From a virus, in IMG/VR virus record IMGVR_UViG_3300006162_000032: a DNA stretch of 36,278 bases. One strand, 5' to 3'. Every line of letters begins with the position of its first letter. Positions within the stretch are counted from its first letter, which is position 1. Shown here in pieces: positions 10,728 through 25,456 of the stretch. The position numbers were made by a program, and so were the translations under genes. The notes below the pieces were generated by a model. The model was not told the origin of the DNA. It did not search any database and was given only the letters and a program-made list of their open reading frames with translations.

Positions 10728-10761
10728 ACCAATCAAATCTTTAAATAGGAGAGGAATTAAC

Positions 10762-11172: not shown

Positions 11173-11193
11173 CAAGATGTAGTGTCCCTGATA

Positions 11194-11223
11194 ACGAGGG
11201 CCACGGAGAAATCCGTGGTAAGT
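11194..11223 (+). repeat. family-A stem-loop element
   Basis: ACGAGGGCC-acggagaaatccgtgg-TAAGT. Confidence 0.8.
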
Positions 11224-11241
11224 ACAAGGAGAGAATTTCAA

Positions 11242-11478: not shown

Positions 11479-11498
11479 GGGGGTTTAAGGAGGGAAAT

Positions 11499-11741
11499 AT
11501 GACAACACAAGTGGGAATGATCGAGGTAGATTCGACCAATATCCAAAGTATCGGATATGACGTGCTGCGGCGGATTCTGTACGTAAGATTCCTGACCGGC
11601 CGCATGTATCGTTACTTTGGCGTAGGTCCCCTGACCTTCGGCCGCTTTCAACGGGCACATTCCAAGGGTCGTTTTTTCTACCAGTTCGTTCGATATCGTT
11701 ACAAGTATGAATTGGTGGAAAACGGCCGGAGGGTGGCATGA
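11499..11741 (+). CDS. hypothetical protein (80 aa)
   Basis: TAAGGAGGGAAAT-ATG. Confidence 0.55.
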   Translation: MTTQVGMIEVDSTNIQSIGYDVLRRILYVRFLTGRMYRYFGVGPLTFGRFQRAHSKGRFFYQFVRYRYKYELVENGRRVA

Positions 11742-11914
11742 GATGGCGGGTCAAGTACGAAACTGTACTGGAGGCAGAAAACCGCACCCAGGCGGTTCTT
11801 TTGGCGGAGTCTTTAATTCCAGAGAAATATTCTAAAGGGATGAAATACACCGTCGAGTTTATTGATCTTGATGAAGAGATGACAGAGGAAGAATATTCAG
11901 AGGGCGCCGGGTGA
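11738..11914 (+). CDS. hypothetical acidic 58-aa protein
   Basis: ATGA overlap with upstream stop; stop TGA in loop of following hairpin; below ORF-track cutoff. Confidence 0.35.
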   Translation: MRWRVKYETVLEAENRTQAVLLAESLIPEKYSKGMKYTVEFIDLDEEMTEEEYSEGAG

Positions 11915-11925
11915 TCCCCGGCGTT
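11898..11925 (+). repeat. family-A-like stem-loop (CAGAGGGCG-ccgggTGAtccccgg-CG)
   Basis: variant lacking GGTAAGT; stop codon in loop. Confidence 0.5.
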
Positions 11926-11947
11926 ACGACCAAATAAAGGAGAAACA

Positions 11948-12214
11948 ATGACAGTAGATAATATTGATGTATACCCGATCGTCGGATGTGAAAAATATCC
12001 GGAGGTTCGGGAAGCAGGTTATTTGGTATGTGAACATGTCGGTAACCCCGGCGACGTGGAGTTTTTTGAGCCGGCCACCGAAACTTCCATGGGCGTAATC
12101 AGTTGCAAGAGTTGTCCTGAAGAAACCGACCCAAAAAGACAAATATATCACTTCTCGGTCAGTTGTGCGTCCTGCCTACGATCGGCGGGGTTTATTCCGA
12201 TTACTGTTCAATAA
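11948..12214 (+). CDS. Cys-rich (Zn-binding-like) hypothetical protein (88 aa)
   Basis: AAAGGAGAAACA-ATG; CxxxxxxxxxC, CKSC, CASC motifs. Confidence 0.5.
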   Translation: MTVDNIDVYPIVGCEKYPEVREAGYLVCEHVGNPGDVEFFEPATETSMGVISCKSCPEETDPKRQIYHFSVSCASCLRSAGFIPITVQ

Positions 12215-12242
12215 CAGAGGGCCACGGGAAACCGTGGTAACG
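12214..12242 (+). repeat. family-A stem-loop element (ACAGAGGG variant)
   Basis: ACAGAGGGCC-acgggaaaccgtgg-TAACG. Confidence 0.75.
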
Positions 12243-12301
12243 CACTCGTCCCTCCAGGCCGTGCGTTGGAAGCAAATTTGTTCGTGATAGGAGAGATTCA
12301 A

Positions 12302-12592
12302 ATGAAAAGTCAAAAGAAGCCCGTGCAGTCTGCAACGGGACGACAGTTTTACGCGCTGGTTGCAAAACCGAAGGTGGATATCACCAAATTAAAACCCCAT
12401 ACCCACGCCGGCGCCACCGTATTGGCCATTAAGAAACTCAAAAAGGCCACGAGTGGCGAGGTCATCGCCGAGGTTAAACGCCAGGGTAAATTGGCGACGA
12501 CGATGCCCGTCGAACAGGCAATTCACTACCAACTGTTCGATCTTGCCAAACGGCGGGGAGTCTTAAAAGTCATGCCAAAGCGGGCGGCATGA
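12302..12592 (+). CDS. small basic protein, paralog of 21962..22372 globular domain (putative nucleic-acid binding)
   Basis: HAGATVLAIKKLKKATSGEVIAEVKRQGKLAT vs HPGAVVHALRKLGEGTRNDVIVEVEKQGKIET. Confidence 0.5.
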   Translation: MKSQKKPVQSATGRQFYALVAKPKVDITKLKPHTHAGATVLAIKKLKKATSGEVIAEVKRQGKLATTMPVEQAIHYQLFDLAKRRGVLKVMPKRAA

Positions 12593-12611
12593 ATAATTCA
12601 TAATGTGGTAA

Positions 12612-12643
12612 ACGAGGGCCGGCCCAGTCATGGGCCGGTAAGT
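12612..12643 (+). repeat. family-A stem-loop element
   Basis: ACGAGGGCC-ggcccagtcatgggcc-GGTAAGT. Confidence 0.8.
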
Positions 12644-12658
12644 ACAAAGGAGAAAACA

Positions 12659-12841
12659 ATGCCAAGAGTAAAACCCGCCAGTCGGGATCGCATTATTTTA
12701 ATCCCCTGCCCTCGTTGCCGGGCCGGGTCTAATGAATTTTGCTTTCGCCAAACAGATTCTAAAAAAGAACCGATGTCAAATTTTGTTCATTCTGTTCGGG
12801 TTCGCGCCTATCATAAGGCGACCAGAGATGAAAAACAATGA
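12659..12841 (+). CDS. small Zn-ribbon-like protein (60 aa; CPRC...C)
   Basis: AAAGGAGAAAACA-ATG. Confidence 0.45.
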   Translation: MPRVKPASRDRIILIPCPRCRAGSNEFCFRQTDSKKEPMSNFVHSVRVRAYHKATRDEKQ

Positions 12842-12953
12842 CGAAGAGGAGCCTCAACATGGTTGGATCGCCACGATGATTGGGGCGGTAATCGTTGGGT
12901 TTTCGATTACCGGGGTCATCTTGATGGTTCAATGGTTTATAACGCGTCACTAA
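12828..12953 (+). CDS. hypothetical 41-aa membrane peptide
   Basis: overlaps 3' end of previous gene; TM segment IGAVIVGFSITGVILMV; stop abuts family-A element. Confidence 0.3.
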   Translation: MKNNDEEEPQHGWIATMIGAVIVGFSITGVILMVQWFITRH

Positions 12954-12983
12954 CGAGGGCCACGGGGGTAACCCGTGGTAAGT
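12953..12983 (+). repeat. family-A stem-loop element
   Basis: ACGAGGGCC-acgggggtaacccgtgg-TAAGT. Confidence 0.8.
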
Positions 12984-13002
12984 ACAAAGGAGAACGACAA
13001 AG

Positions 13003-13230
13003 ATGTGGAACCCATTTCGTAAGAAAAAAGCACCCGTTGTTGATCCAGTTTTTGATGCCATTGCCAACCGTCACGTTTGTCCAGACTGTAATAACGACAC
13101 ATTTTTTCAAGGACGACGGGGTGGGTTAAGTCAAAACATAAAATGTTCTAAGTGTGGTTCTGAATTTAACGTGGCGCCCTTCGAGGATGGCCAGTTTTTG
13201 GGCGAACCTTTTCTGGTAGAACGTATTTGA
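13003..13230 (+). CDS. Zn-ribbon protein (CPDC...CSKC; 75 aa)
   Basis: AAAGGAGAACGACAAAG-ATG. Confidence 0.55.
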   Translation: MWNPFRKKKAPVVDPVFDAIANRHVCPDCNNDTFFQGRRGGLSQNIKCSKCGSEFNVAPFEDGQFLGEPFLVERI

Positions 13231-13262
13231 ACGAGGGCCGTGGGATAACTTCCACGGTAAGT
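13231..13262 (+). repeat. family-A stem-loop element fused to family-B leader
   Basis: ACGAGGGCC-gtgggataacttccacg-GTAAGT. Confidence 0.8.
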
Positions 13263-13328
13263 GTGGCAGAGGGAAACCTCAGAGTGCGACGGCCTCCGCC
13301 GTCGACACTGCCATACCAGGAGAGGAAT
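13262..13328 (+). promoter_or_regulatory. family-B structured 5' leader (P1 TGGCAG/CTGCCA, a covariant of GGCAA/TTGCC)
   Basis: GAGGGAAACCTC P2; P3 GTGCGACGG/CCGTCGACAC; CCATACCAGGAGAGGAAT-ATG. Confidence 0.6.
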
Positions 13329-13547
13329 ATGCAAAACAAAATTATTGATGATTACATTCATCGATTACCTTGTAATCAACGGCGGTATGCGAGGGCATAT
13401 CGTACATGGTTACTGACCGGACAAAAGGGTTCGGCGCCCAATCCATTTGGCTTCCAGTTAAGTGGATTTGAAACTAGTCTGATCAAAAAGGTCATCGAAA
13501 ATGGGACCATTCAGGAGGCCCGGTATGCCAAGACCAAATCAGCCTGA
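13329..13547 (+). CDS. hypothetical protein (72 aa)
   Basis: start after family-B leader. Confidence 0.5.
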   Translation: MQNKIIDDYIHRLPCNQRRYARAYRTWLLTGQKGSAPNPFGFQLSGFETSLIKKVIENGTIQEARYAKTKSA

Positions 13548-13749
13548 GTTCGCCGTCAAAAAGAGCGAATTCGACGAAATACGACGGGTGATTCATCCGA
13601 CGATTACGTACGGTACCACCGAGGCGGGGCCGTTTAAGTACCTCATCTTTCCGGGTGAGACCGCGAGGCGTCGCGCGGTGATCGATGTTCAAACCGCCGG
13701 GTTCCGGGTATTTTATCAACGGTCTTGGGGAGGAATGGTAAAGGTATGA
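13525..13749 (+). CDS. hypothetical protein (74 aa)
   Basis: CAGGAGG at 13511-13517 then ATG 13525; overlaps upstream gene. Confidence 0.45.
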   Translation: MPRPNQPEFAVKKSEFDEIRRVIHPTITYGTTEAGPFKYLIFPGETARRRAVIDVQTAGFRVFYQRSWGGMVKV

Positions 13750-14003
13750 AAAAAGCAAAATCGACACCCAATCCGGAATGGACCGAGGAAAAGGTCAAAA
13801 AAGAATTACCCATGGTCAAACTCCAGGTTGGCCCACGGGTCATTCTTACTGCCGTTACTTCTGGTCGAATGTTAGATTATTGCGTAGTTTCCGTTTACTC
13901 CCATATGAATCTGGACGTGCCCCAGGTACGGGAAATGCGTCTGGAATTTTCCTGGGCGGCGGTTACTCGCAGTCTCAACGAAAATAAACCACTACAAATA
14001 TAA
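13746..14003 (+). CDS. hypothetical protein (85 aa)
   Basis: ATGA overlap. Confidence 0.5.
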   Translation: MKKAKSTPNPEWTEEKVKKELPMVKLQVGPRVILTAVTSGRMLDYCVVSVYSHMNLDVPQVREMRLEFSWAAVTRSLNENKPLQI

Positions 14004-14033
14004 CGAGGGCCGTGGGGAAAACCCACGGTAAGG
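14003..14033 (+). repeat. family-A stem-loop element (GGTAAGG variant)
   Basis: ACGAGGGCC-gtggggaaaacccac-GGTAAGG. Confidence 0.8.
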
Positions 14034-14066
14034 CCACAATAGAGTGAGCCTTGTAAGGAGAGGAAA
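14027..14066 (+). promoter_or_regulatory. family-C leader (GGTAAGGCCAC...GTGAGCCTT helix abutting AAGGAGAGGAAA-ATG)
   Basis: AAGGCCAC/GTGAGCCTT complementarity; related copies at 14318 and 14794. Confidence 0.45.
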
Positions 14067-14282
14067 ATGATCACGGATAGTATCAACAATCGCGATATGC
14101 GTCGTCAAGAAGCAATCAACAAGGCCATCGAGGCCGCCGATCGTATTATTCTGGAACACTCAGACGGATCGGTCGAAGAAACCAACTATCTAACCTCGGC
14201 CGTCGCCGTAAAGTGGGCCGAAAAGGTTCACCATGCAAACCAGCATGATTTGGCCCGGTACGATTTGAACCAGGCCGCCTAA
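14067..14282 (+). CDS. hypothetical protein (71 aa)
   Basis: GTAAGGAGAGGAAA-ATG. Confidence 0.5.
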   Translation: MITDSINNRDMRRQEAINKAIEAADRIILEHSDGSVEETNYLTSAVAVKWAEKVHHANQHDLARYDLNQAA

Positions 14283-14290
14283 GTTGTTTC

Positions 14291-14323
14291 CCCGAAGGCG
14301 GGTCACTCCGGTGACCCGTAAGG
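14291..14323 (+). repeat. family-A-like stem-loop (no ACGAGGG; stem gggtcactccggtgaccc + GTAAGG)
   Basis: same stem as copy at 10697. Confidence 0.55.
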
Positions 14324-14376
14324 CCACCATCCGGGGGCACGAAAACCGGAGTGAGCCTTATTAGGAGAGGAACAAT
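14318..14376 (+). promoter_or_regulatory. family-C leader with inserted hairpin TCCGGGGGCACGAAAACCGGA
   Basis: GTAAGGCCACC...GTGAGCCTT-ATTAGGAGAGGAACAAT-ATG. Confidence 0.45.
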
Positions 14377-14517
14377 ATGTCCCGAGACAAAGTGGTCAAA
14401 CGTCTGCAAGACGCGATCATGTGGTATGTTTCTCATGACGTGTATCGGTTGCTGATTGAACTTGCGTTTCTGGGTGGGGTGGCATCAGTTGCCATCGCCG
14501 GCGGCGCACGAGTATAA
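14377..14517 (+). CDS. hypothetical 46-aa protein with hydrophobic C-terminus
   Basis: TTAGGAGAGGAACAAT-ATG; below ORF-track cutoff. Confidence 0.35.
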   Translation: MSRDKVVKRLQDAIMWYVSHDVYRLLIELAFLGGVASVAIAGGARV

Positions 14518-14521
14518 ATCA

Positions 14522-14734
14522 ATGAACCGAAGACGACAAAGCCGTCTCCGGGCCAAGAATAGATTTTGGCGGGTTTACCACAGTATGTGGTTTAAACTGA
14601 TCGTGTTAGTGATTTTGATCGTGGCCGCTTTTCTTTTGCGACACGAGGCATTAACACTGACCGCGGTCGTCGTCAAGTCGATGGACATCGCCTGCGATTT
14701 ACTCGCCGACGGTGCTTTCAACGGTGGTGAATAG
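14522..14734 (+). CDS. hypothetical membrane protein (70 aa; Arg-rich N-terminus then TM)
   Basis: ATG 4 nt after upstream stop; TM LIVLVILIVAAFLL. Confidence 0.4.
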   Translation: MNRRRQSRLRAKNRFWRVYHSMWFKLIVLVILIVAAFLLRHEALTLTAVVVKSMDIACDLLADGAFNGGE

Positions 14735-14751
14735 AAACTCAAAACATATCT

Positions 14752-14766
14752 CTGCGATTATCGCAG
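14752..14766. promoter_or_regulatory. palindrome CTGCGATTATCGCAG (copy 1 of 2) between stop codon and family-A element
   Basis: second copy CTGCGATTCTCGCAG at 15592-15606 in identical context AAACATATCT-pal-TGATACGAGGGCC. Confidence 0.5.
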
Positions 14767-14770
14767 TGAT

Positions 14771-14800
14771 ACGAGGGCCGTGGGGAAACCCACGGTAAGG
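14771..14800 (+). repeat. family-A stem-loop element (GGTAAGG variant)
   Basis: ACGAGGGCC-gtggggaaacccac-GGTAAGG. Confidence 0.8.
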
Positions 14801-14853
14801 CACAAGCCGGGGGCACGAATCCGGCGGTGACCTTAAAAGTGGAGAGGAAAAAT
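14794..14853 (+). promoter_or_regulatory. family-C leader with hairpin GCCGGGGGCACGAATCCGGC
   Basis: GTAAGGCAC...GTGACCTT-AAAAGTGGAGAGGAAAAAT-ATG. Confidence 0.4.
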
Positions 14854-15069
14854 ATGGCACCCGAAAAACCAAAGGCCAAGACGGTAACCGTAGAGCTGCG
14901 CGTGGTTGATCCCAAGAAGGGAGCAGTCAAATACAGCCTTCCCAAGGATCAGTCCGGCGTACTCACCAACATCTACGTCAACCGTCTGGAGGCGATGAAA
15001 GAACTGGGTATCTCTGAACTCGGGGACCTCAAGGGTTTCAAGGTTACCCTGGAACCTATTACTGCGTGA
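14854..15069 (+). CDS. hypothetical protein (71 aa)
   Basis: GGAGAGGAAAAAT-ATG. Confidence 0.5.
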   Translation: MAPEKPKAKTVTVELRVVDPKKGAVKYSLPKDQSGVLTNIYVNRLEAMKELGISELGDLKGFKVTLEPITA

Positions 15070-15098
15070 CGAGGGCCGGCCCATCTGGGCCGGTAAGT
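15069..15098 (+). repeat. family-A stem-loop element
   Basis: TGA-CGAGGGCC-ggcccatctgggcc-GGTAAGT. Confidence 0.8.
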
Positions 15099-15111
15099 AC
15101 CGGAGGAAACA

Positions 15112-15234
15112 ATGAACAAACTTAAACAACTCGGAGAGTACGTAGTAGTACTGGCGGTCGTCGTAATCATTATCATCGGCAGTCGCCACCTAATCGGCGA
15201 CAATGTTAATCTGGTTTATAGCGTGGTTCGTTAA
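15112..15234 (+). CDS. hypothetical 40-aa membrane peptide
   Basis: CCGGAGGAAACA-ATG; TM VVVLAVVVIIIIG; below ORF-track cutoff. Confidence 0.35.
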   Translation: MNKLKQLGEYVVVLAVVVIIIIGSRHLIGDNVNLVYSVVR

Positions 15235-15261
15235 CGAGGGCCGTGGGAAACCACGGTAAGT
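15234..15261 (+). repeat. family-A stem-loop element
   Basis: TAA-CGAGGGCC-gtgggaaaccac-GGTAAGT. Confidence 0.8.
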
Positions 15262-15297
15262 CAATCTCCCCATTGACTTGAAAGGAGGACGCGCGAT

Positions 15298-15405
15298 ATG
15301 TGGCCATTTAACTTGCACCCCGTCTTCATGGGGTTTACCTGGTTTGATATCTCCGCAACCGCGTGGTTTTTTTTGTTGTGGTTGTTGTATCGGCAAGTTC
15401 ACTAA
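15298..15405 (+). CDS. hypothetical 35-aa hydrophobic peptide
   Basis: GAAAGGAGGACGCGCGAT-ATG; Trp/Phe/Leu-rich. Confidence 0.3.
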   Translation: MWPFNLHPVFMGFTWFDISATAWFFLLWLLYRQVH

Positions 15406-15416
15406 AGGAGAAAACA

Positions 15417-15575
15417 ATGAAAACACTGTGGAAGTCCGAAGAAGGGCAAGATATCGCAGAATACGCCGTGATGCTGGCGGTAATTCTGGTAATCGTCGTC
15501 GGTACGGTTCGCCTGATTGGAAGCAATTCCAATAACGTTTTTTCAAGTGCGGCGAGCGCCGTGGCGGCGCAGTAA
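15417..15575 (+). CDS. flp: Flp/Fap-family type IVb pilin-like protein (52 aa)
   Basis: MKTLWKSEEGQDIAEYAVMLAVILVIVVGTV matches Flp pilin signature (EEG-x-x-x-IEY-[AG]-hydrophobic stretch); CTAAAGGAGAAAACA-ATG. Confidence 0.55.
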   Translation: MKTLWKSEEGQDIAEYAVMLAVILVIVVGTVRLIGSNSNNVFSSAASAVAAQ

Positions 15576-15591
15576 AAATAAAAACATATCT

Positions 15592-15606
15592 CTGCGATTC
15601 TCGCAG
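15592..15606. promoter_or_regulatory. palindrome CTGCGATTCTCGCAG (copy 2 of 2)
   Basis: see 14752-14766. Confidence 0.5.
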
Positions 15607-15610
15607 TGAT

Positions 15611-15640
15611 ACGAGGGCCGCGGGGAAACCCGCGGTAAGT
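15611..15640 (+). repeat. family-A stem-loop element
   Basis: ACGAGGGCC-gcggggaaacccgcg-GTAAGT. Confidence 0.8.
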
Positions 15641-15706
15641 ACAGCCGGGAAAAAATCCCAAACAAGAAACTTAAACCGTCTCTTGTTGCTGTACCAGGAG
15701 AGGAAC
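15637..15706 (+). promoter_or_regulatory. family-B-like structured leader (variant, paralog of 5118-5183)
   Basis: TACAGC/GCTGTA P1, GGGAAAAAATCCC, AACAAGA...TCTCTTGTT, CCAGGAGAGGAAC-ATG. Confidence 0.55.
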
Positions 15707-15946
15707 ATGAAACTAATCTACGTTATCAACCACCATTCCAATGAAGATTACATGAACAATCTGGCAATCGTCGAAGTAGGACCGGACGACGCCTCTGAAA
15801 GTGGAATGACCATCGGAACAAAAATTGAACGGTACAGAAATTTGTTAAAGGTTAAGTACCCGTTTCATCATTCCATCGTGTTCATGGGTCACTTCCAGGG
15901 AGGTATTCATGTAATGCCATTCCAAGATTTAGAGATATTCATGTAA
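15707..15946 (+). CDS. hypothetical protein (79 aa); C-terminus altered by 32-bp tandem duplication
   Basis: start after conserved leader; ORF-track extension LLYQERN is translated leader. Confidence 0.5.
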   Translation: MKLIYVINHHSNEDYMNNLAIVEVGPDDASESGMTIGTKIERYRNLLKVKYPFHHSIVFMGHFQGGIHVMPFQDLEIFM

Positions 15947-15968
15947 TGCCATTCCAAGATTTAGAGAT
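15905..15968 (+). repeat. perfect 32-bp tandem duplication (ATTCATGTAATGCCATTCCAAGATTTAGAGAT x2)
   Basis: directly visible; without second copy the gene would end ...DLEI-TGA-CGAGGGCC as at other family-A junctions. Confidence 0.9.
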
Positions 15969-15971
15969 ATG

Positions 15972-15998
15972 ACGAGGGCCGTGGGAAACCACGGTAAG
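15972..15998 (+). repeat. family-A stem-loop element
   Basis: ACGAGGGCC-gtgggaaaccac-GGTAAGT. Confidence 0.8.
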
Positions 15999-16068
15999 TA
16001 TGGTTAATGAGGGGAAACCTCAGAACCAAGAGACTTCGTCTCTTGGTTTGCCATACCAGGAGAGGAAC
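15999..16068 (+). promoter_or_regulatory. family-B structured 5' leader
   Basis: ATGG..TTAATGAGGGGAAACCTCAG; P3 AACCAAGAGAC/GTCTCTTGGTT; TTGCCATACCAGGAGAGGAAC-ATG. Confidence 0.6.
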
Positions 16069-17172
16069 ATGAGTACAGCAACGTACCAAGTTACATCACC
16101 CGTGGACGATCCCTACTCGTCTTTGATTGATGAGTTTCTGTGGCGGGAGTTTCCCGTCGCCGCGGCTCCTCCAAAACAATCATTGCTCGAGATTATCACC
16201 GGTATTCTCTTGGGAACGAACCAGAATCGTTATGGTCCGATCCCGAAACCCGAGGCACTGGTGACAATTCGGGCGGTCATCCGGCAGAGTCTCGAACTGG
16301 GTAAGGCAATTCCGGTGCTGGTTCCCTGGGGCGGCCGAAAGGCCAAGACGGGGGCCATTCTGGATGTGGCCGAGGTCATGGCACTGAAACAACTCGCCTG
16401 CCTTTACCGGCAGGTTCGGGAAGTCTTCACACCATCTATCCAGTTTAATCTTCGTGTTGAAGATATCAACGCGGAGTATCTCTACCAAGAAGATGGCCCA
16501 GTCGGAGCAGAAATGGTGGAAGAGTACTCACAGGGTTTGTCGGCCTTGGTTCGGATTCTAAATCTTCATTTTGTGAATCCGGTCCGGGAAAAACATCTGA
16601 CTACCTATGAGGCCTACTTTGCCCTGGCCGACCAGATACAAGATGCCATGTACGAGTATCTGGTGGATAGTGACCAACCGGGTTATGACCGGAATAAATC
16701 CAAGTCTTGGGCAAAATTGCAGGACTTGGGTTGGTCTGGGGAAATTCCCACGGAGCAACGGGAGTATTACCGTCGACGGTATCGGGCCTGGGAACCGGGC
16801 ATTACGGAGTTCGCGGCCAATGTCAAGTTGGCGCGGTACTTCGCGGGCGCCCTGGCCCGGTACAAACTGCGGGCCTCGGGCGCAGATAAAAGTTGGACTG
16901 ATTATATTCAGATCAGCTTTACGCCGCCCGTACCCGGTGCCCCGGAGTCCTTTACCAATCGCATGTTGTACTATCGAACCATCGTCGAACGTTTGTCCAG
17001 AAATCACATGCCACCCTGGCGGGGTCGGGGTTACATTGCAATGATCGGACGGACGGCGGTTCCCAAACTTGCAAGTTTTCAAGAAAATCTTTCCTTGATT
17101 TCGCACCAAACTCGGTTGTCGAGAAACGGGGAAGACGTAGATGTTGATACAAGTTATTTGGTCAAACAATAA
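16069..17172 (+). CDS. hypothetical 367-aa protein (likely enzyme; no motif recognised)
   Basis: long ORF after family-B leader; ORF-track N-terminal 23 aa are translated leader. Confidence 0.65.
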   Translation: MSTATYQVTSPVDDPYSSLIDEFLWREFPVAAAPPKQSLLEIITGILLGTNQNRYGPIPKPEALVTIRAVIRQSLELGKAIPVLVPWGGRKAKTGAILDVAEVMALKQLACLYRQVREVFTPSIQFNLRVEDINAEYLYQEDGPVGAEMVEEYSQGLSALVRILNLHFVNPVREKHLTTYEAYFALADQIQDAMYEYLVDSDQPGYDRNKSKSWAKLQDLGWSGEIPTEQREYYRRRYRAWEPGITEFAANVKLARYFAGALARYKLRASGADKSWTDYIQISFTPPVPGAPESFTNRMLYYRTIVERLSRNHMPPWRGRGYIAMIGRTAVPKLASFQENLSLISHQTRLSRNGEDVDVDTSYLVKQ

Positions 17173-17201
17173 CAGAGGGACGCGGCGAACCTGCCGCGTT
17201 A
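17172..17201 (+). repeat. family-A-like stem-loop (ACAGAGGGAC-gcggcgaacctgccgcg-TTAATG)
   Basis: variant flanks. Confidence 0.55.
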
Positions 17202-17219
17202 ATGAACAGGAGGGAAAGC

Positions 17220-17411
17220 ATGCCAGAATTAGATCGGGTTTGGATGTTGGTAGATCGAGAAGGGGTAGTTTTGTATCATCGCCCCGGAACATCTGCCAGC
17301 GAGGCCTGGGAGTATGCCGTAAAGGACGTGAAGGATATCACGGGGTGGGATGCCAGTCTTCTCAAGAAAAAGGGCTTTCGAGCAAAAAAAAGTGATTATC
17401 AGTTTGCCTAA
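17220..17411 (+). CDS. hypothetical protein (63 aa)
   Basis: CAGGAGGGAAAGC-ATG. Confidence 0.5.
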   Translation: MPELDRVWMLVDREGVVLYHRPGTSASEAWEYAVKDVKDITGWDASLLKKKGFRAKKSDYQFA

Positions 17412-17431
17412 TAAGCCCATTCCTAGTAACT

Positions 17432-17460
17432 CAGAGGGCCGTGGGTAAATCCACGGTAAT
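17432..17460 (+). repeat. family-A stem-loop element (CAGAGGGCC ... GGTAATGG) fused to family-B leader
   Basis: CAGAGGGCC-gtgggtaaatccac-GGTAATGG. Confidence 0.75.
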
Positions 17461-17524
17461 GGCAATGAGGGGAAACCTCAAACATGCGGCTTCGCCGCAA
17501 TGTTTGCCATACCAGGAGAGGAAC
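17455..17524 (+). promoter_or_regulatory. family-B structured 5' leader
   Basis: TAATGGCAATGAGGGGAAACCTCA; P3 AACATGCGGC/GCCGCAATGTT; TTGCCATACCAGGAGAGGAAC-ATG. Confidence 0.6.
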
Positions 17525-17695
17525 ATGAAAGAGCCAATTAAAGTAGAACTCGGAGAAAAAGAATTGCGAGAATTATTAAATGGCCGCACAATCACCGTGC
17601 GGGATCGGCACCGCGAGATAGAAATCACCGCCACCGCGGCGGGGTTTCTGGCCGAGCGTGCGGTGATGGACGAAAATCCCGTTTTGAAAGTGTAA
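17525..17695 (+). CDS. hypothetical protein (56 aa)
   Basis: start after family-B leader. Confidence 0.5.
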   Translation: MKEPIKVELGEKELRELLNGRTITVRDRHREIEITATAAGFLAERAVMDENPVLKV

Positions 17696-17709
17696 AAGTA
17701 GTGGTAAAA

Positions 17710-17742
17710 ACGAGGGCCGGGGGATATATTTCCCCGGTAAGT
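17710..17742 (+). repeat. family-A stem-loop element
   Basis: ACGAGGGCC-gggggatatatttcccc-GGTAAGT. Confidence 0.8.
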
Positions 17743-17763
17743 AAATATCAAAGGAGAACGTAA

Positions 17764-19113
17764 GTGGAAGAAAAAGAATTATTAGATCGTGCAAAATCCG
17801 GCGATCAAGACGCGTTCTCCCAAATATATCGTGACCAGTTATCGCGGGTAAAAAAAACTTTGCGCAAATATTGGCAACTGAATGAAGACGCCGTGGAAGA
17901 ACTGGCCCAGGTGACCTTTACGAAGGCCTTTCTGGCCATCGGCGATTTTCGAGGTGAGGCCAAATTAAGTTCCTGGTTGCATCAAATTGCGCACCGGGAA
18001 TTTTTGATGTACCTACGAAGAAAGAACAATCTTTCAGAAGTATCCTTGGATAATCCCATCAATGAAGATGGAAACACCCTGGATTTGCCGGATACTCCGG
18101 ATAAAACCATAGATTCCTGGATCACACGTGAGCATTTTTTGCGCTTGTTACCGTATTTGAATAGGAGCCGGCGCCGCGTGTTGTTTCTTAGATTTCTGGA
18201 AGAAAAAACTTTGGAAGAAACCGCCGGAATTTTAAATTTGTCCGTCGGGGCCGTAAAGGCCTATCAATCACACGGTTTGAGTGATCTTCGAGTGTTGTGG
18301 GAGAGCAAATCAATGAGCAAATCAATGAGCAAGAAAAAACGAAGGTTGCGGCGCGAAAAACTGGTCGCCGCGGCCGCCCGGGAACACATCGGGAGTCCAC
18401 CACCGACGCAAATACGAAGTTCACGGAATGCGGGGGCGTCCAGATTCAATGAAACGGAACTGGGTAGTTATTACCATCTGAGCGGACGCGACCCTCGTGC
18501 CCCGAATCAAATATTTACGTCGCACGGACTTCTGGCAAAAACCCCCGTGAATCTCCGTCCCCCCCGGACGGTCACAGCACCGGGGCCGGTTCGGCAGTAT
18601 ACCCAGGAAGAGATTGTTCATCAAAACTATCTCTTTCAACTAAAACAACAAGGAGAGAAAACAATGGAACAAATACCAAGTGGATCACCACCGACCATCG
18701 AGTCTTTGATATCTGATGCCCATCGCAAGGTACAGTTTTATACCCGGCAGGCCGCGGAATCCGAGGCCGAGGCCCGTAAGTGGACCGCGGTGATTGAACA
18801 ACTGACAAGTGCCCACGATATTATCACGGGAAAGAAGTCGATTAATGCGACGGCCCATGATGAGGTCAATGGAAATGCCCCGCAGACTCGTTCACCACGA
18901 GGATATTGGGAACCGGTCTTAAAACAGATACTCGCCGATGGGCCTCTTCCTAAGAACGAATTAGTTCAGAAGATGATGACCGCGGGTACCACAAATGGTC
19001 AGGCCTATTCGATCATCCGTCGATGCCAAGATAAAGAATTAATCCTGGAATCGGATGGAAAACTGCACTGGATGGCGCCGGTCACCGAAGAACAACCGAG
19101 GGCCGCGGGGTAA
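17764..19113 (+). CDS. ECF-type sigma-70 family factor (regions 2 and 4) with about 260-aa C-terminal extension
   Basis: region 2: AVEELAQVTFTKAFLAIGDF...SSWLHQIAHREFLMYLRRK; region 4: RRVLFLRFLEEKTLEETAGILNLSVGAVKAYQSHGLSDLR; AAAGGAGAACGTAA-GTG start; in-frame internal AAGGAGAGAAAACA-ATG at 18664. Confidence 0.75.
   Translation: MEEKELLDRAKSGDQDAFSQIYRDQLSRVKKTLRKYWQLNEDAVEELAQVTFTKAFLAIGDFRGEAKLSSWLHQIAHREFLMYLRRKNNLSEVSLDNPINEDGNTLDLPDTPDKTIDSWITREHFLRLLPYLNRSRRRVLFLRFLEEKTLEETAGILNLSVGAVKAYQSHGLSDLRVLWESKSMSKSMSKKKRRLRREKLVAAAAREHIGSPPPTQIRSSRNAGASRFNETELGSYYHLSGRDPRAPNQIFTSHGLLAKTPVNLRPPRTVTAPGPVRQYTQEEIVHQNYLFQLKQQGEKTMEQIPSGSPPTIESLISDAHRKVQFYTRQAAESEAEARKWTAVIEQLTSAHDIITGKKSINATAHDEVNGNAPQTRSPRGYWEPVLKQILADGPLPKNELVQKMMTAGTTNGQAYSIIRRCQDKELILESDGKLHWMAPVTEEQPRAAG
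18303..18326 (+). repeat. 12-bp tandem repeat (GAGCAAATCAAT x2) inside sigma-factor extension (SKSMSKSM)
   Basis: directly visible. Confidence 0.8.
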
Positions 19114-19127
19114 TACCCGTGGTAAGG
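19097..19127 (+). repeat. family-A stem-loop element (stop TAA of sigma gene in loop)
   Basis: CGAGGGCC-gcggggTAAtacccgtg-GTAAGG. Confidence 0.7.
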
Positions 19128-19138
19128 AGGGAACAACA

Positions 19139-19357
19139 ATGAATGAAGGTTTGGCAAGTTTGGCGTTAATTTTACTGGGAGTATTGTACCTATGGTATGT
19201 ATTCTCTTTGGCCCGGCGACAGGAAAAGGCCTGGGAGATTATGCAACAGGCGCTTCTATCTCAGAACCGATGTGCGCCGCCGCCCGATATGGAAGTTCCG
19301 CCGGGGGTATTGCGTCCGGACGCACACCACGTACCACCGGCGCGGGGTATTCAGTAA
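19139..19357 (+). CDS. hypothetical membrane protein (72 aa)
   Basis: GGAGGGAACAACA-ATG; TM LASLALILLGVLYLWYVF. Confidence 0.45.
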   Translation: MNEGLASLALILLGVLYLWYVFSLARRQEKAWEIMQQALLSQNRCAPPPDMEVPPGVLRPDAHHVPPARGIQ

Positions 19358-19385
19358 CAGAGGGCCGGCCCACGGGCCGGTAATG
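19357..19385 (+). repeat. family-A stem-loop element (ACAGAGGG variant)
   Basis: ACAGAGGGCC-ggcccacgggcc-GGTAATGG. Confidence 0.75.
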
Positions 19386-19449
19386 GCAATGAGGGGAAAC
19401 CTCAACAAATAAGCCAACGGCTTATTTGTTGCCATATCAGGAGAGGAAA
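19379..19449 (+). promoter_or_regulatory. family-B structured 5' leader
   Basis: TAATGGCAATGAGGGGAAACCTCA; P3 AACAAATAAGCC/GGCTTATTTGTT; TTGCCATATCAGGAGAGGAAA-ATG. Confidence 0.6.
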
Positions 19450-19857
19450 ATGCGTTGTCCAAGTTGCAATAAGTTTGTTCCCTATGAAGACCCCCATGAA
19501 GTTGAGTTAGAAGGTGATTTGGAAGTGGACCTCATCGCGGCCGAGGTCCGGGCCGATGTTCGAGTAATATTGAAATGCGGCGAATGCGGCGAAGAATTGA
19601 AAGATGCAAATATCAGCGCAACTCAGGATATTCCTGGGTATGTACCCGAAGACCACGAGGGCGATGAACACGACCTCTCCGTCAATGGTAATGGTTCAGA
19701 TTTAGAACCGGCCACAAAAAGCGAGGGCAAGGGAAGAGGAACGAAAATGTTCTATGGTTTTTCTCTAGACTACAAAGTTTCGTGCAGTTGCGGAGCAACA
19801 TTCGAGGGAACGTTGTCGGATTTTGAACAAGCTAGTGCAATGAATGAACTCGCGTAA
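19450..19857 (+). CDS. Zn-ribbon-containing hypothetical protein (135 aa)
   Basis: MRCPSCNKF ... CGECGEE ... CSCG; start after family-B leader. Confidence 0.55.
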   Translation: MRCPSCNKFVPYEDPHEVELEGDLEVDLIAAEVRADVRVILKCGECGEELKDANISATQDIPGYVPEDHEGDEHDLSVNGNGSDLEPATKSEGKGRGTKMFYGFSLDYKVSCSCGATFEGTLSDFEQASAMNELA

Positions 19858-19885
19858 CAGAGGGCCGTGGGGTAAACCCACGGTA
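19857..19885 (+). repeat. family-A stem-loop element (ACAGAGGG variant)
   Basis: ACAGAGGGCC-gtggggtaaacccac-GGTAACGG followed by hairpin AACGGAC-TACT-GTCCGTT. Confidence 0.75.
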
Positions 19886-19916
19886 ACGGACTACTGTCCG
19901 TTATGAGGATAAAAAC

Positions 19917-20429
19917 ATGAAACCAAGGAGAGGAAAACAGTATGGGAGCACTAAGGAAAGTCATTCCATTTTCCAAACTGCGGCATTCCGGCTCGGTTAC
20001 CTTTACCGGGATATCAAAGCGCAGCTTAACGCCCTCGGAGCAGAGACAGGCGGAGCGATCACTCCGCCCGACGCTGCCCATTGGGTGGGAACGCTTCTTC
20101 TCGCCGAGACGCGCGGGGAGTTATTGGACGGTACCCAACATTTGCCCCAGATGCGGGGAGCAACCGACCAAGGGAATGAAATCGCCCCTGGCACGACGAC
20201 GATTCATGTTCGTTCACATGATGACAAACCATTGAAACGTCGTCTGTCCAAGTCGGCACGGAACCGGATTGCCCAGGCCCAGCGATTGCGATGGGCGAAA
20301 ACCAAAAGAAAATCAAAAGTTGCCATCGGGGCGAAAAGTTACTGGGACAAAATGTCTCCGGAAGAACGTTCGGCCGAGATGCAACGTCGCGTCAAAGTCC
20401 GGAATGCCAACAAAAAGAAGGCGGCATAA
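19917..20429 (+). CDS. hypothetical basic protein (170 aa; Lys/Arg-rich C-terminus)
   Basis: GAGGAT + 7 nt + ATG; stop abuts next family-A element (TAA-ACCAGAGGGC). Confidence 0.45.
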   Translation: MKPRRGKQYGSTKESHSIFQTAAFRLGYLYRDIKAQLNALGAETGGAITPPDAAHWVGTLLLAETRGELLDGTQHLPQMRGATDQGNEIAPGTTTIHVRSHDDKPLKRRLSKSARNRIAQAQRLRWAKTKRKSKVAIGAKSYWDKMSPEERSAEMQRRVKVRNANKKKAA

Positions 20430-20431
20430 AC

Positions 20432-20460
20432 CAGAGGGCACCGGGGAAACCCGGTGTAAC
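20432..20460 (+). repeat. family-A stem-loop element (CAGAGGGCA variant)
   Basis: CAGAGGGCA-ccggggaaacccggtg-TAACGG followed by hairpin AACGGA-TATCTT-CCGTT. Confidence 0.7.
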
Positions 20461-20489
20461 GGATATCTTCCGTTATCAAGGAGAGGAAT

Positions 20490-20999
20490 TTGGAAAACCA
20501 ACAATACGAAAAGCCATCCCCGGAAACCGTGGCGAAACTCGAGCAGTTAATTGAGTACATCGAGAAAGAACCACTTCGGTTCAACATGGGTTTGTGGGGA
20601 GTAACGGCCAAAGAAGGCGATGTTTTGAAAAAAAGAGTGTCTCAAATATTATCAGAATTTTCGCCGACGGCCGATGATGTTCCCCCCTGTAATACGGTGG
20701 GATGCCTGGCGGGAAATATTCTGGTAATGACGGGACAGGTTAAACCGATTAAAGATGAAGAAACAGACGTATCTTATTTTATCTTTCACACGGATACCCC
20801 CGACCGCGCCGCGGAATGGCTTGGCATAGATAAGAGTGCCGCGGCACGCTTGTTTCTTTTAAGGGGTTATCGCAACTACGGCCGAGGTCACTGGCCAGAA
20901 ACTTTTGAAAGAAGACTTCGGGATGCCACCCCGGGGACTACCGAGTATGTCAATATTACCAAAGAACGTATCCGGCACTTTGAACAAACCGGAGAATAA
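20490..20999 (+). CDS. hypothetical protein (169 aa)
   Basis: AAGGAGAGGAAT-TTG start per ORF track; internal ATG alternatives exist. Confidence 0.5.
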   Translation: MENQQYEKPSPETVAKLEQLIEYIEKEPLRFNMGLWGVTAKEGDVLKKRVSQILSEFSPTADDVPPCNTVGCLAGNILVMTGQVKPIKDEETDVSYFIFHTDTPDRAAEWLGIDKSAAARLFLLRGYRNYGRGHWPETFERRLRDATPGTTEYVNITKERIRHFEQTGE

Positions 21000-21027
21000 C
21001 AGAGGGCCACGGGTAAACCCGTGGTAA
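20999..21027 (+). repeat. family-A stem-loop element (last copy; ACAGAGGG variant)
   Basis: ACAGAGGGCC-acgggtaaacccgtgg-TAATG. Confidence 0.75.
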
Positions 21028-21116
21028 TGTACACCAGACCGTAATCGGTGTACTATGATTTTGCTGTTGTTCCTCTCCGAACAGACACGGGGTTGTTCCC
21101 GTGTCATACAGCAAAC

Positions 21117-21149
21117 CCCGGCCCAGGAAACTGGGCCGGGCATATTTTT
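21117..21149 (+). terminator. rho-independent terminator (CCCGGCCCAG-GAAA-CTGGGCCGGG + CATATTTTT)
   Basis: 10-bp GC stem, GNRA loop, U-tract; ends the small-gene array. Confidence 0.8.
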
Positions 21150-21272
21150 CAAAAACAGTAGGTTGCGGTGGGTGCTCTTTAAGGCTTGTCCGCCTGGCAG
21201 CCGGCGCAGGCAAAGAGGATACAAGACCCGGCATGTTCAGCGGTGAGGACTTCCTCATGGACTCTGAGAGCA

Positions 21273-22829: not shown

Positions 22830-23142
22830 ACAACAAAAAATTGAAGAGTACGGTATTGCGATGCACGCCCTGCAAAGTGGCATCGCATTTTCTCTGGCTA
22901 AAAAAAATCCCACGGTTCCGGATATAAATCAAAATCCTTATCTCCGGGAACTAAAGCATCAACGGGTGGGGATCGACGGGACAAAATCTGATCATAGCGC
23001 CCTGGTAAAATTACTGATCGAAAGGGGAATCATCACCGACGAAGAGTACATTGATGCCATGTTAGAAGGTGTGATCGCCGAGGTTCATCGGTATGAAAAG
23101 GCGCTCAGCCAAGAGTATGGCGTGAAGGTAACCCTCCTATGA
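22816..23142 (+). CDS. hypothetical protein (108 aa), GTG start
   Basis: AAGGAG + 7 nt + GTG; ORF-track longer version overlaps previous gene without RBS. Confidence 0.45.
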   Translation: MKKSRQQKIEEYGIAMHALQSGIAFSLAKKNPTVPDINQNPYLRELKHQRVGIDGTKSDHSALVKLLIERGIITDEEYIDAMLEGVIAEVHRYEKALSQEYGVKVTLL

Positions 23143-24311
23143 ATACAAATCTCGACGCTCTCATTATCAATTCATACGCCGGCAGCCTGGTGCTCGGAGC
23201 GCAATCTACCGGACTAGAAATTCGTGGGTCTTATGAAGACTGCGGGTTTGGTCTTCCGATCCAGAAATTGAACTTTCCGAAGTTGAAATTTGTGGAAAGA
23301 ACCCCCTGGCCAAAAGACAATTTGTCTTCTACCATTGTTATTGCCCACCCTCCCTGCGCGGCCTTTTCCAATCAAAACAATTCAGTCTCCCGCAAGGGTA
23401 TTAATACGGACGCCTTTAAGTGTCATCGGGAGGTGATGGACTATTCGATGAGCAACCGGTGTGCGGCCCTGGCCATCGAGTCGGTCCCCGGTGCGTTAAA
23501 GGCCCAGGCGGAGTATGCCAAGTATGCCCGGAAGTACAACTACACCCACTACTTCATACATTTAAATTCGGCCAGTTTCGGGGTCTCGCAATGGCGTCCC
23601 AGAGTTTGGATGATATTCCTGCGCGACCTACCACGGTTGGTGGTAAATCCTCCGTGGGAGTGGAAGACCGTGGGAGATATTCTACAAACCCCCGAAGAAT
23701 ATGAGGCCGCCGTCGGGGCCGGGATCGAACCAAATGTCATGATGAAGAAGTTACTGGATTATTTCGGCAAGAAATTCAAGACCGCCGAGTTTAACTTCGA
23801 AGAGTTTTTGAAATTTGAAAATATCGGATCGTTCGTACCGGCCGTGGCGGAGTTCCTGAATATTGAAAAGACCCGCGAGGCCGTTAACAAGGCCTGCGGT
23901 ACCTCGGGATTGTTCGGGGTTCGGTTGCCGCGGAAGATGGACCTACGGTGGTTTTCTCCGGTGATCCTGGACGATAGTTTTTTCTTTGCCAATGGTCGCC
24001 CCCTGACGATGATCGAGTACCAAAGAATCATGGGATTCCCCGATGATTTTAAATGGCCAGAAAATCTCAAACGAAAATTCACCATGTATCTTTCCAAGGG
24101 CGTGGCACCGCCGGTCGCGGCCTGGATCGCAAAGACTTTGGTCATGAATTGTGAGAAGACCATCTCGTTATCTCCCGCCCGTACCCAGGTCGGTGCGCCC
24201 GGTGAAATTCTGGATATCCGGCCGAATACCGATCAGGCCAAGGAGGCCGTCAACCGGAGTCGCAACAAGACATTACCATTCGTCGGAAAGTTTAAGAGGG
24301 CCGCGGTATGA
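23139..24311 (+). CDS. DNA (cytosine-5)-methyltransferase-like protein
   Basis: motif IV HPPCAAFS (PC), motif VI IESVPG (ENV-like), motif VIII QWRPRVW (QxRxR), N-terminal SYAGSLVLG (motif I-like); correct order. Confidence 0.6.
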   Translation: MNTNLDALIINSYAGSLVLGAQSTGLEIRGSYEDCGFGLPIQKLNFPKLKFVERTPWPKDNLSSTIVIAHPPCAAFSNQNNSVSRKGINTDAFKCHREVMDYSMSNRCAALAIESVPGALKAQAEYAKYARKYNYTHYFIHLNSASFGVSQWRPRVWMIFLRDLPRLVVNPPWEWKTVGDILQTPEEYEAAVGAGIEPNVMMKKLLDYFGKKFKTAEFNFEEFLKFENIGSFVPAVAEFLNIEKTREAVNKACGTSGLFGVRLPRKMDLRWFSPVILDDSFFFANGRPLTMIEYQRIMGFPDDFKWPENLKRKFTMYLSKGVAPPVAAWIAKTLVMNCEKTISLSPARTQVGAPGEILDIRPNTDQAKEAVNRSRNKTLPFVGKFKRAAV

Positions 24312-25456
24312 AGTTTCGAGATTATGTCGACCAGGATACATTAAGAAAGTACCTGGATGAAAAAATTGTGACGGTTCGTTTTCATCCCCGTGCGCCCCTG
24401 GCAATATACAATTATGGCCGACGTGCACAGTTCGAAAACATCTGGGACAATGTCACTGTCCGATGCCGTGGGTTGATCGTGGATCAAAAAATGGGCGACG
24501 TGATCGCCCGCCCATTTGAGAAATTTTTCAATTTAGGTCATCAAGGAAGACCAGAGACGAATTTTGAAAACTTGCCGTCGGAGGAACCAGAGGTTACTGA
24601 AAAAATGGATGGTAGCCTGGGAATTTACTATCGGTACGGTGATCTGTCGGGAATTGCCTCACGGGGTTCTTTTGACTCTGAACAGGCCCTGTGGGCAACT
24701 CAATGGTATAAAATTCATTTGATAGATTCTCAATGGCCGGAAACTTTTACACCTCTATTTAAAATTGTCTACCCCGGCAATCGCATCGTTGTTAAATACG
24801 ACTGGGAAGGACTCATATTACTTGGCATGGTTGAAAAAGAATCGGGTCGGGAATTATACCACCGGCATCTGGTTGGTTACGGCCAGAAAAATAACTGTCG
24901 AGTGGTTCCATTGTTCAATAAGTCTATTGCCGACTGCCGGACTGAGGAACAAAATAACGCCGAGGGTTACGTCGCAACTTGGAACCATGGACTGCCCCGA
25001 CCTCCCCTAAAAATAAAAATCAAATTTATTGAGTACCGTCGTCTTCATCGGTTAATGACCGGCAGATCTCCCAAGGAAATATGGAGGATGCTGAAAGACG
25101 GGGAAGTCTTCGATGCCGATGTACCGGAGCACTATGCCGAGTGGTTACGGGGCTGGAGAGAATTACTTTTGGGTGAGTATTACCGACTGGAGACAAAAGC
25201 AAAAAATATCTACGACACTTGCGACTTGGAAAAAGATGGTCAGAACAAAGATTCCCGTCGAAAACTGGCGGAATACTTTAACCGGGTTGAGCATCGTGAG
25301 GTCAACGGAGTTCTTTTCAAAATGTTGGACGGCGAATCCTACCAGGAAATTATCTGGAAACTTATCAAACCTCTCACAAAGAGTTATGATCCTTTTCGAG
25401 TCGCCGGCTTGATTTTCTTCGGGTCGACTTTTTTCGCCTCGGCGGTTAGCGAATAG
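24308..25456 (+). CDS. ATP-dependent polynucleotide (RNA) ligase-like nucleotidyltransferase
   Basis: motif I KMDGSLG (KxDG), motif IV-like AEGYVATW, motif V LKIKIKF (KxK); no DNA-ligase OB/extended domains; ATGA overlap. Confidence 0.55.
   Translation: MKFRDYVDQDTLRKYLDEKIVTVRFHPRAPLAIYNYGRRAQFENIWDNVTVRCRGLIVDQKMGDVIARPFEKFFNLGHQGRPETNFENLPSEEPEVTEKMDGSLGIYYRYGDLSGIASRGSFDSEQALWATQWYKIHLIDSQWPETFTPLFKIVYPGNRIVVKYDWEGLILLGMVEKESGRELYHRHLVGYGQKNNCRVVPLFNKSIADCRTEEQNNAEGYVATWNHGLPRPPLKIKIKFIEYRRLHRLMTGRSPKEIWRMLKDGEVFDADVPEHYAEWLRGWRELLLGEYYRLETKAKNIYDTCDLEKDGQNKDSRRKLAEYFNRVEHREVNGVLFKMLDGESYQEIIWKLIKPLTKSYDPFRVAGLIFFGSTFFASAVSE

Follow-up and report, generated by a model that had tools for sequence, protein, structure and literature searches.

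Why should a phage gene for a small sigma factor of the extracytoplasmic function (ECF) type run on in frame for some 269 codons beyond its last sigma domain, and why should that continuation contain a second, well-formed signal for starting translation? The question is raised by the open reading frame (ORF) at 17764-19113 of IMG/VR virus record IMGVR_UViG_3300006162_000032, a stretch of 36,278 nucleotides (nt) that is referred to below, at its full length, as the window. Positions are those of the whole window and amino acid (aa) numbers those of the full-length, 449-aa protein. The answer to the first part is that a complete ECF sigma factor has almost certainly been fused to a complete protein of a phage family that we call X. 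The answer to the second is that this one cistron, a fusion of two complete proteins, carries the conserved nested start of the X family and probably yields from it a second product, a 149-residue fragment of DNA-binding type. The sigma half of the gene is laid out as follows.

17764-19113, + strand: the full ORF, encoding the sigma-X fusion protein (GTG start, 449 aa)
17753-17766, + strand: primary Shine-Dalgarno (SD) sequence and start (GGAG at 17753-17756, GTG at 17764-17766)
17827-18027 (aa 22-88), + strand: sigma-70 region 2 (Pfam PF04542)
18136-18291 (aa 125-176), + strand: sigma-70 region 4 with the 4.2 helix-turn-helix (Pfam PF08281 and PF04545)

The primary start pairs with the anti-SD sequence at -8.7 kcal/mol. 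Region 2 matches PF04542 (Sigma70_r2) over aa 22-88 with 41.8 bits against a cutoff of 24 (E 9e-11), and aa 125-176 match both PF08281 (Sigma70_r4_2; 33.8 bits, cutoff 25.7, E 2.5e-8) and PF04545 (Sigma70_r4; 31.3 bits, cutoff 24.1, E 1.5e-7); no further sigma domain of Pfam, region 1.1 or region 3, appears at E <=1. The NCBIfam model TIGR02937 ('sigma70-ECF') covers aa 16-176 with 76 bits (cutoff 42.9), no NCBIfam equivalog model reaches its cutoff (SigY, at the top, scores 83 bits against 194), and PHROG 1740, 'RNA polymerase sigma factor', is matched by aa 4-205 (E 3.6e-18). The nearest relatives of aa 1-183 are ordinary bacterial ECF sigma factors of 193-200 aa, for example from metagenome-assembled genomes of Zixibacteria, with 31-34% identity; because they cover 96% of this query, the sigma part is taken to be complete and to end near aa 180. 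By these profile matches aa 1-180 are an ordinary sigma factor of the ECF type (group 4), made up of sigma2 and sigma4. A preliminary description of this DNA had proposed an ECF sigma factor with clear regions 2 and 4 and a long C-terminal extension, and both are borne out, with the extension (aa 181-449) coming to about 269 residues.

The extension is the less familiar half.

18313-19110 (aa 184-449), + strand: X-family part (phmmer, alignments A1 and A2, AlphaFold2)
18598-18642 (aa 279-293), + strand: conserved helix YSxEVIxHxNxL (family alignment)
18697-18828 (aa 312-355), + strand: long helical hairpin with the motif GsIExALxDA..K..FY...RW, predicted local distance difference test (pLDDT) score 89-93
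18907-19071 (aa 382-436), + strand: C-terminal winged helix-turn-helix, H-H-H-beta-beta, pLDDT ~96

When aa 181-449 were compared exhaustively by HMMER (phmmer) with 1.84 billion representatives, 42 proteins matched at E <=1e-3, 11 of them at E <=1e-10. The top relative, P0004 (440 aa; E 7e-31, query residues 7-253), is also the sole other protein among the 42 in which X is fused to a sigma factor. Three matches, P0005, P0016 and P0020, were rejected as spurious, all being long repeat proteins matched in many stretches (P0005 and P0020 are of low complexity as well). The remaining matches are proteins of 140-360 aa, most of them 230-320 aa, that lack a sigma domain. Some that seemed to be short standalone proteins are not: P0003 and P0030 are truncated at contig edges, as P0029 probably is, judged only from its overlap with P0042. 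Many of the longer homologs begin with a basic N-terminus that aligns to aa 184-200 and then contain every conserved block, in the order ARExIGsPkPT, GAPRL, the YSxEVIxHxNxL helix, a variable linker, the hairpin motif and the C-terminal domain. With significant similarity and shared motifs over the whole of aa 184-449 (alignments A1 and A2), this part of the protein belongs, on the evidence of its sequence and over its full length, to a family of phage proteins not described before, X.

Other collections add little. Pfam holds no family for the extension or for its 38 relatives, and PHROGs and PDB sequence searches give nothing significant for the extension (the PHROG 1740 match ends at aa 205). 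A blastn comparison of 17000-20000 with GenBank phages produced no match, neither the full protein nor alignment A2, as queries in word-indexed homolog searches, brought up anything but the protein itself and P0032, and scans of IMG/VR with the window protein, the group-B alignment A4, A8 and A9 found nothing. Scanning IMG/VR with P0004 yielded only L010, which was rejected as an unrelated Bacteroidota-style ECF sigma factor with an anti-sigma gene, and a scan of GTDB genomes found no prophage relative. Alignment A5, in which sigma-only and X-only proteins were mixed, misaligned sigma homologs onto the extension and was discarded.

AlphaFold2 folds the sigma domains of the full-length protein with confidence (pLDDT 83-92 in region 2 and 90-95 in region 4); modelled by itself with the family alignment, the extension has a mean pLDDT of 77. 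From aa 184 to 449 the predicted order is a basic helix (aa 184-209) with the motif AREHIGSPPPT, a Pro/Arg-rich region, the helix YTQEEIVHQNYLFQL (aa 281-295, residues 101-115 of the extension model), a linker, the helical hairpin and the winged helix. The Pro/Arg-rich low complexity pointed out in the preliminary description is genuine, and it is predicted to be disordered (pLDDT <50 at aa 216-228 and 240-276). The hairpin accounts for the best-conserved columns of the X-family alignment. Foldseek searches of PDB and BFVD return only generic winged-helix neighbours, none of them significant (Fur, BlaI, MarR, Z-alpha and the SelB winged helix; root mean square deviation 1.5-3 A over ~55 residues, E 0.08-0.7). 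In the full-length model the last helix of sigma4 is continuous with the basic helix of X (aa 161-209), and it is within this helix that the two proteins were joined.

18299-18330, + strand: fusion joint, with an SD-like GGGAGAG and in-frame ATGs, placed by alignment with standalone homologs
18303-18332, + strand: perfect 12-bp tandem duplication GAGCAAATCAAT (Tandem Repeats Finder; 2.5 copies, 100% match)

GGGAGAG (18299-18305; SD energy -7.3 kcal/mol) lies 7 nt 5' of the ATG at 18313. That ATG (M184) and the next in frame, at 18325 (M188), mark the position at which standalone X proteins have their N-terminus: P0027 begins MSNKRRKKRRL and P0007 MSKSKQKK(FSK), while the fusion reads M-SKSM-SKKKRRL ("MSKKKRR"). 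The corresponding place in P0004 reads tGGAGcggcaATG followed by SNRRKKK, and both fusion proteins have in-frame, SD-preceded ATGs where X should start. The 12-bp duplication, already noted in the preliminary description with its product SKSMSKSM, overlies the joint and doubles the junction Met. Since the homologs start at aa 184-188 and run continuously past 18664, the joint is to be placed at 18300-18330, and two once separate genes did not meet at 18664; the earlier suggestion of two genes fused by loss of a stop codon was right as to the kind of event and wrong as to its place. The fusion would have come about by loss of the sigma stop codon, leaving the ancestral start of X and its SD sequence still in frame, and the duplication on the joint would be recent. 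The flanks of six standalone X loci (L004, L005, L006, L013, L014 and L015; at most 6 kb per side, some contigs ending sooner) yielded no sigma gene, which argues that the fusion is a lineage-specific event. (At L015 a weak Sigma70_r4 flag attaches to a 206-aa protein near P0026, which by the NCBIfam models is no sigma factor.) Between the contig of P0004, L011, and the window there is synteny at the conserved gene that comes next.

The local punctuation of the genome treats the fusion as one unit.

17712-17741, + strand: upstream punctuation hairpin, the 5' cistron boundary (GAGGGCC-stem-loop-stem-GGTAAG)
19098-19126, + strand: downstream punctuation hairpin, the 3' cistron boundary, with the stop codon TAA (19111-19113) in its loop

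These belong to a set of 34 copies, found on the + strand only and from 4424 to 21030 (others lie, for example, at 6849-6875, 12614-12642 and 15613-15639), of an element made up of GAGGGCC, a stem of 6-9 bp, a loop of 2-6 nt, the other stem arm and GGTAAG(TAC); the - strand of the window has 0 copies. The element stands directly after stop codons and ahead of the SD sequence of the next gene. Its 29 different stem arms are strong evidence that pairing is kept by covariation. None lies inside 17764-19113, the nearest copies being those at the flanks (17712 and 19098), and by this punctuation the sigma-X fusion is a single cistron. The P0004 gene also ends in a punctuation element, with a different stem; at loci with standalone X genes the element is not abundant. 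Rfam recognises no family in the window, the punctuation element included. The hairpin was considered as a promoter of this sigma factor and set aside because its conserved flanks lie anywhere from 14 to 20 nt apart, a variation that the -35/-10 pair of sigma promoters does not fit. In role it resembles the RNase III sites of T7 and the PeSL cassettes of T4-type phages (PMC2839356).

What, then, of the start signal inside the extension?

18650-18666, + strand: candidate internal initiation site, AAGGAGAG, a 6-nt spacer and an in-frame ATG (M301), SD energy -8.5 kcal/mol
18664-19113, + strand: nested in-frame ORF, a putative 149-aa short isoform made up of the hairpin and the winged helix

The preliminary description had called attention to this SD sequence and in-frame ATG as identical to the start signals of about 40 genes of the locus. 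The signal is there; the identity is not. As an exact string the 17-mer AAGGAGAGAAAACAATG at 18650-18666 is unique in the window and only two other sites come within one mismatch, with 4 copies at up to three mismatches against 0.13 expected per window. What it matches is the local consensus: scored with a ribosome-binding-site matrix derived from the called starts of 40 genes of the phage, the ATG at 18664 ranks 17th of 665 ATGs, and all 16 sites above it are at gene starts or in their ribosome-binding regions (the one at 30031, for instance, is in another frame, 7 nt upstream of the start at 30038).

For the comparison with homologs 11 genes were available as DNA, the window gene included (21-47% pairwise identity, with one pair at 79%). 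In every one of the 11 this linker offers an ATG or GTG in frame, and in 10 of them the anti-SD energy at that codon is -7.6 to -9.3 kcal/mol (-5.0 in L004).

Window: AAGGAGAG-N6-ATG
L011: GGGAGAG-N9-ATG
L006 and L008: AAGGAG-N9-ATG
L012: AAGGAG-N12-ATG
L013 and L014: AAAGGAG-N9-ATG
L015: GAGGGAAGG-N7-ATG
L016: GGAGGAG-N8-ATG
L005: AAGGAG-N9-GTG
L004: AAGGAAAGGGA-N10-ATG (weaker)

Only 6 of 153 control ATGs in the same genes (4%) have an SD energy <=-7.5 kcal/mol, and among the six is the genuine start codon of a downstream gene that overlaps (Fisher p 1e-9 for linker against other ATGs, 1e-8 with the close pair collapsed). The residues encoded by the SD sequence vary (GEKTM, GEKPSM, KEKTSM, KEHTPM, REGRTM, GGAEEM) and the purine-rich SD sequence persists. 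In the AlphaFold2 model the site is in the linker of lower confidence between the conserved helix and the hairpin. At one further locus, L017, hairpin and winged helix form a separate 139-aa gene, preceded by in-frame stops and an unrelated upstream gene. Comparison of homologs had been proposed beforehand as the test that might refute a start at 18664, through a continuous architecture and the lack of a conserved internal SD sequence; the architecture is indeed continuous, but the internal SD sequence is conserved. Judged by this comparison the nested start belongs to the X family as such and is older than the fusion. The separate C-terminal product of about 150 aa that had been suggested, still putative, gains comparative support from the recurrence of SD sequence and start in the linker (10 of 11 genes) and from the independent module at L017. 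On balance we lean towards real internal initiation at 18664, yielding the 149-aa hairpin and winged-helix protein.

The annotated primary starts of standalone X genes at L004-L006, L008 and L012-L013 have a weak SD sequence or none (+0.7 to -3.7 kcal/mol), and the internal one is stronger in each (<=-7.9, except in L004 at -5.0). Because of this difference the short isoform may be translated more strongly than the long one in those phages.

Several observations weigh against reading the locus as a sigma-X fusion with a working nested start, and they bear on different parts of it. The functional link between X and sigma factors is made by two fused examples only, the standalone X genes having no adjacent sigma gene, and the sigma domains of those two fusions are merely 27% identical (their X parts 38%). 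AlphaFold2 places no confident contact between sigma domains and extension (predicted template modelling score 0.28), the joint being one helix, and for coevolution between the halves there are just the two fused sequences to draw on. No target promoter was found for the sigma factor: GGAAC-N14-19-CGT occurs 10 times in the window against 10.6 expected, so that the GGAAC...CGT-type promoters foreseen nearby in the preliminary description are not enriched and its candidate at 4627-4657 is at chance level. The eleven genes compared are homologous and not independent samples, and about 8 of 36 family proteins, counted by eye, lack a Met in the linker, so that initiation there would require a GTG in their genes. 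Lastly, synonymous re-coding of the six codons upstream equals the observed SD sequence in strength in 5-52% of trials per gene (per-gene p 0.05-0.52), with a marginal combined p of 0.05 (Fisher). The weakness of this last result means that conserved Lys/Gly-Glu residues could explain much of the SD-like sequence, and it leads to the most substantial of the alternatives, namely that the SD sequence and ATG are a by-product of coding for Lys/Gly-Glu-Lys and a hydrophobic Met after YSxEVIxHxNxL...GEK, and that only the full-length protein is made. AAG GAG and GGA GAG codons do happen to read as an SD sequence, about a quarter of the family has no Met to start from, and RNA folding around 18664 is not distinctive (z-score -1.2). 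We nevertheless consider this the less likely account, one to be taken seriously: the residues vary (GEK, KEK, KEH, REG, GGAEE) and so does the spacing of the Met, yet a strong SD sequence sits 6-12 nt from the start in 10 of 11 genes; it accompanies other Mets of the same genes in only the 4% already referred to; the site is in a linker at a module boundary, outside any packed helix; and the module downstream of it is a gene of its own at L017.

Two further alternatives concern the gene rather than the start, and both are very improbable. The strong signal at 18650-18666 and the solitary C-terminal module of L017 might be taken to mean that the fusion happened at 18664, between a sigma factor with a 120-aa tail and a once separate 149-aa gene whose start signal survives. 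The standalone homologs all span the site in one ORF, with the motifs ARExIGsPkPT, GAPRL and YSxEVIxHxNxL upstream of it; aa 184-300 and aa 301-449 belong to the same protein family; the true joint, with its ancestral N-terminal Met, is at 18313-18327; and the 149-aa protein in the database that would fit, P0003, is the contig-edge truncation mentioned above. Still harder to credit is an artefact of sequencing or assembly, a lost base or a chimeric join that fuses neighbouring genes, even though the window does carry a 1-nt indel at 28807 relative to another assembly. The gene is identical at full length, as is its 449-aa protein, in assemblies ENA ERZ28007521 and Logan SRR5581441, and the 3' 558 nt of the gene are identical in a contig of JGI 3300027898, making three samples altogether. 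Another full-length JGI cluster member encodes the same protein, differing only in the written form of the GTG start, and P0004, on an unrelated contig and 38% (X part) and 27% (sigma) identical, is likewise fused. There is, finally, the view that the extension acts purely in cis, in the manner of ECF41 and ECF42, folding back on sigma2 and sigma4 to inhibit or license them, and that the internal start is irrelevant. Among the ways in which ECF sigma factors are regulated, C-terminal extensions rank second in frequency, being found in 19 groups and usually without an anti-sigma gene (PMC7826278), and no anti-sigma domain was detected here in the extension or, at E <=0.05, in eight neighbouring genes, the six flanking ones and two beyond. 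As the whole explanation we think it unlikely: the extension bears no relation to any of the known types (SnoaL-like, TPR, Cys-rich, DUF1835, transmembrane), other phages have it as a protein in its own right, the flanks covered there yielding no sigma gene, and AlphaFold2 does not dock it onto the sigma domains. Regulation in cis is compatible with the fusion and its nested start and not exclusive of them.

If the fused cistron with its nested start is read as we propose, its mRNA would give rise to the 449-aa sigma-X protein and to the 149-aa C-terminal isoform; an X-only product of ~266 aa from the ATG at 18313 is also possible. Winged helix and hairpin would provide the sigma factor with an additional module for nucleic-acid binding and self-association, and the free short isoform would pair or compete with the full-length protein through the same hairpin or binding sites and in that way set its activity. 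That the short protein modulates or partners full-length sigma-X through shared self-association or binding sites is much less certain than its synthesis, and is suggested by analogy: in Tn5, Inh is an in-frame isoform of the transposase Tnp, truncated at its N-terminus, that acts on its full-length partner. A bolder generalization, speculative and rather improbable, would make X a phage transcription factor that acts on RNA polymerase or its sigma factor and always comes as two nested isoforms. The sigma-X fusion would then be its 'Rosetta stone', and the ORF would encode a sigma factor together with its own free modulator, as an anti-sigma-like or co-factor pair.

In-frame nested genes made by internal initiation of translation include, besides Tn5 Tnp/Inh, T7 gene 4A/4B, lambda S107/S105, phiX174 A/A* and the isoforms of ClpB and IF2. 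The gene at 17764-19113 resembles them in having an in-frame ATG with its own SD sequence at a domain boundary and in that its truncated product is predicted to keep whole domains. It differs from them in that the long form is a fusion to a sigma factor and the nested start is apparently older than the fusion. Another comparison is with phage-encoded sigma factors (PHROG 1740 and 351; Schwartz et al. 2022, PMC9429907); the gene is like them in its match to PHROG 1740 and its location among early-type small genes of the phage, and unlike them in that the X part has no PHROG and the sigma core is nearest to bacterial ECF sigma factors (31-34%). MotA of T4, which binds both sigma region 4 and DNA, provides a conceptual lead, a phage module of DNA-binding type beside sigma region 4, and nothing beyond that: no relation to MotA is claimed, there being no sequence match and no significant fold match (the MotA activation domain in BFVD, at E 0.34 over 58 residues, is a generic helical hit).

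The closest parallels are with ECF41, ECF42, ECF238 and similar groups, which share with sigma-X a complete sigma2-sigma4 core followed by more than 50 extra residues (269 here) and the lack of a recognisable anti-sigma gene next door, as scanned among the neighbours (PMC7826278). An ECF sigma factor that carries an extension at its C-terminus is regarded as a one-component regulator, and the classification of Casas-Pastor et al. 2021 leaves out phage ECF sigma factors (PMC7826278). Unlike the extensions of those groups, the present one consists of a disordered, motif-bearing region, a helical hairpin and a winged helix, and elsewhere it is a free-standing phage protein with its own conserved internal start. 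Compared with those it is a new type of ECF extension, an autonomous phage protein in other settings that has kept ancestral start signals at the joint, and the family-wide nested start predicts a second product from the same frame. Should the short isoform be real, one phage gene would specify both a sigma factor and a free module to match it, a compact arrangement by which transcription directed by the phage could be timed or limited, and some 40 uncharacterised X proteins would have their first functional lead, to transcription.

Among the neighbours of the gene, a Lys/Arg-rich protein encoded at 19917-20429 carries the motif RIAAAQRxRWAK...YW..M.PEER.AE..RR, which is also found at 8020-8646 (- strand) of L005, near the X gene in both places; it is possibly a conserved neighbour of the X family. 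At 21065-21150 there is an element, TGTTGTTCCTCTCCGAACA, that is kept in L011, followed by a strong intrinsic terminator, CCCGGCCCAGGAAACTGGGCCGGG with a T-run (21117-21150), which closes the block of small punctuated genes. Beyond it are genes for a C5 DNA methylase (23139-24311), a T4-type RNA ligase (24308-25456) and an anti-defence-type protein with an Acb2/Tad1 hairpin (25457-25843), identities that were taken from precomputed Pfam hits on an identical contig, L001.

A second repeat, longer than the punctuation element, is found as a leader before seven genes and consists of GGTAATGGCAATGAGGGGAAACCTCA, a variable hairpin and TTTGCCATACCAGGAGAGGAACATG.

Leader repeat copies: 5139-5187, 8580-8628, 13284-13332, 15679-15709, 16024-16072, 17480-17528 and 19405-19453

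Its arms, TGGCAA and TTGCCA, could pair to enclose the SD sequence in a structure of several hairpins. The indel at 28807 is a deletion of 1 nt in the window relative to the ENA assembly L001 (GGAGTAGTG vs GGAGTGTG), and it breaks up an 851-aa gene (Pfam MVP_shoulder) into the ORFs 27422-28873 and 28807-29976, which overlap; a mistake in assembly, genuine variation or a site of frameshifting could each account for it. At 2320-2424 a 14-bp sequence, GGGCAACCGCGCCG, is repeated in tandem in ~6-7 nearly perfect copies.

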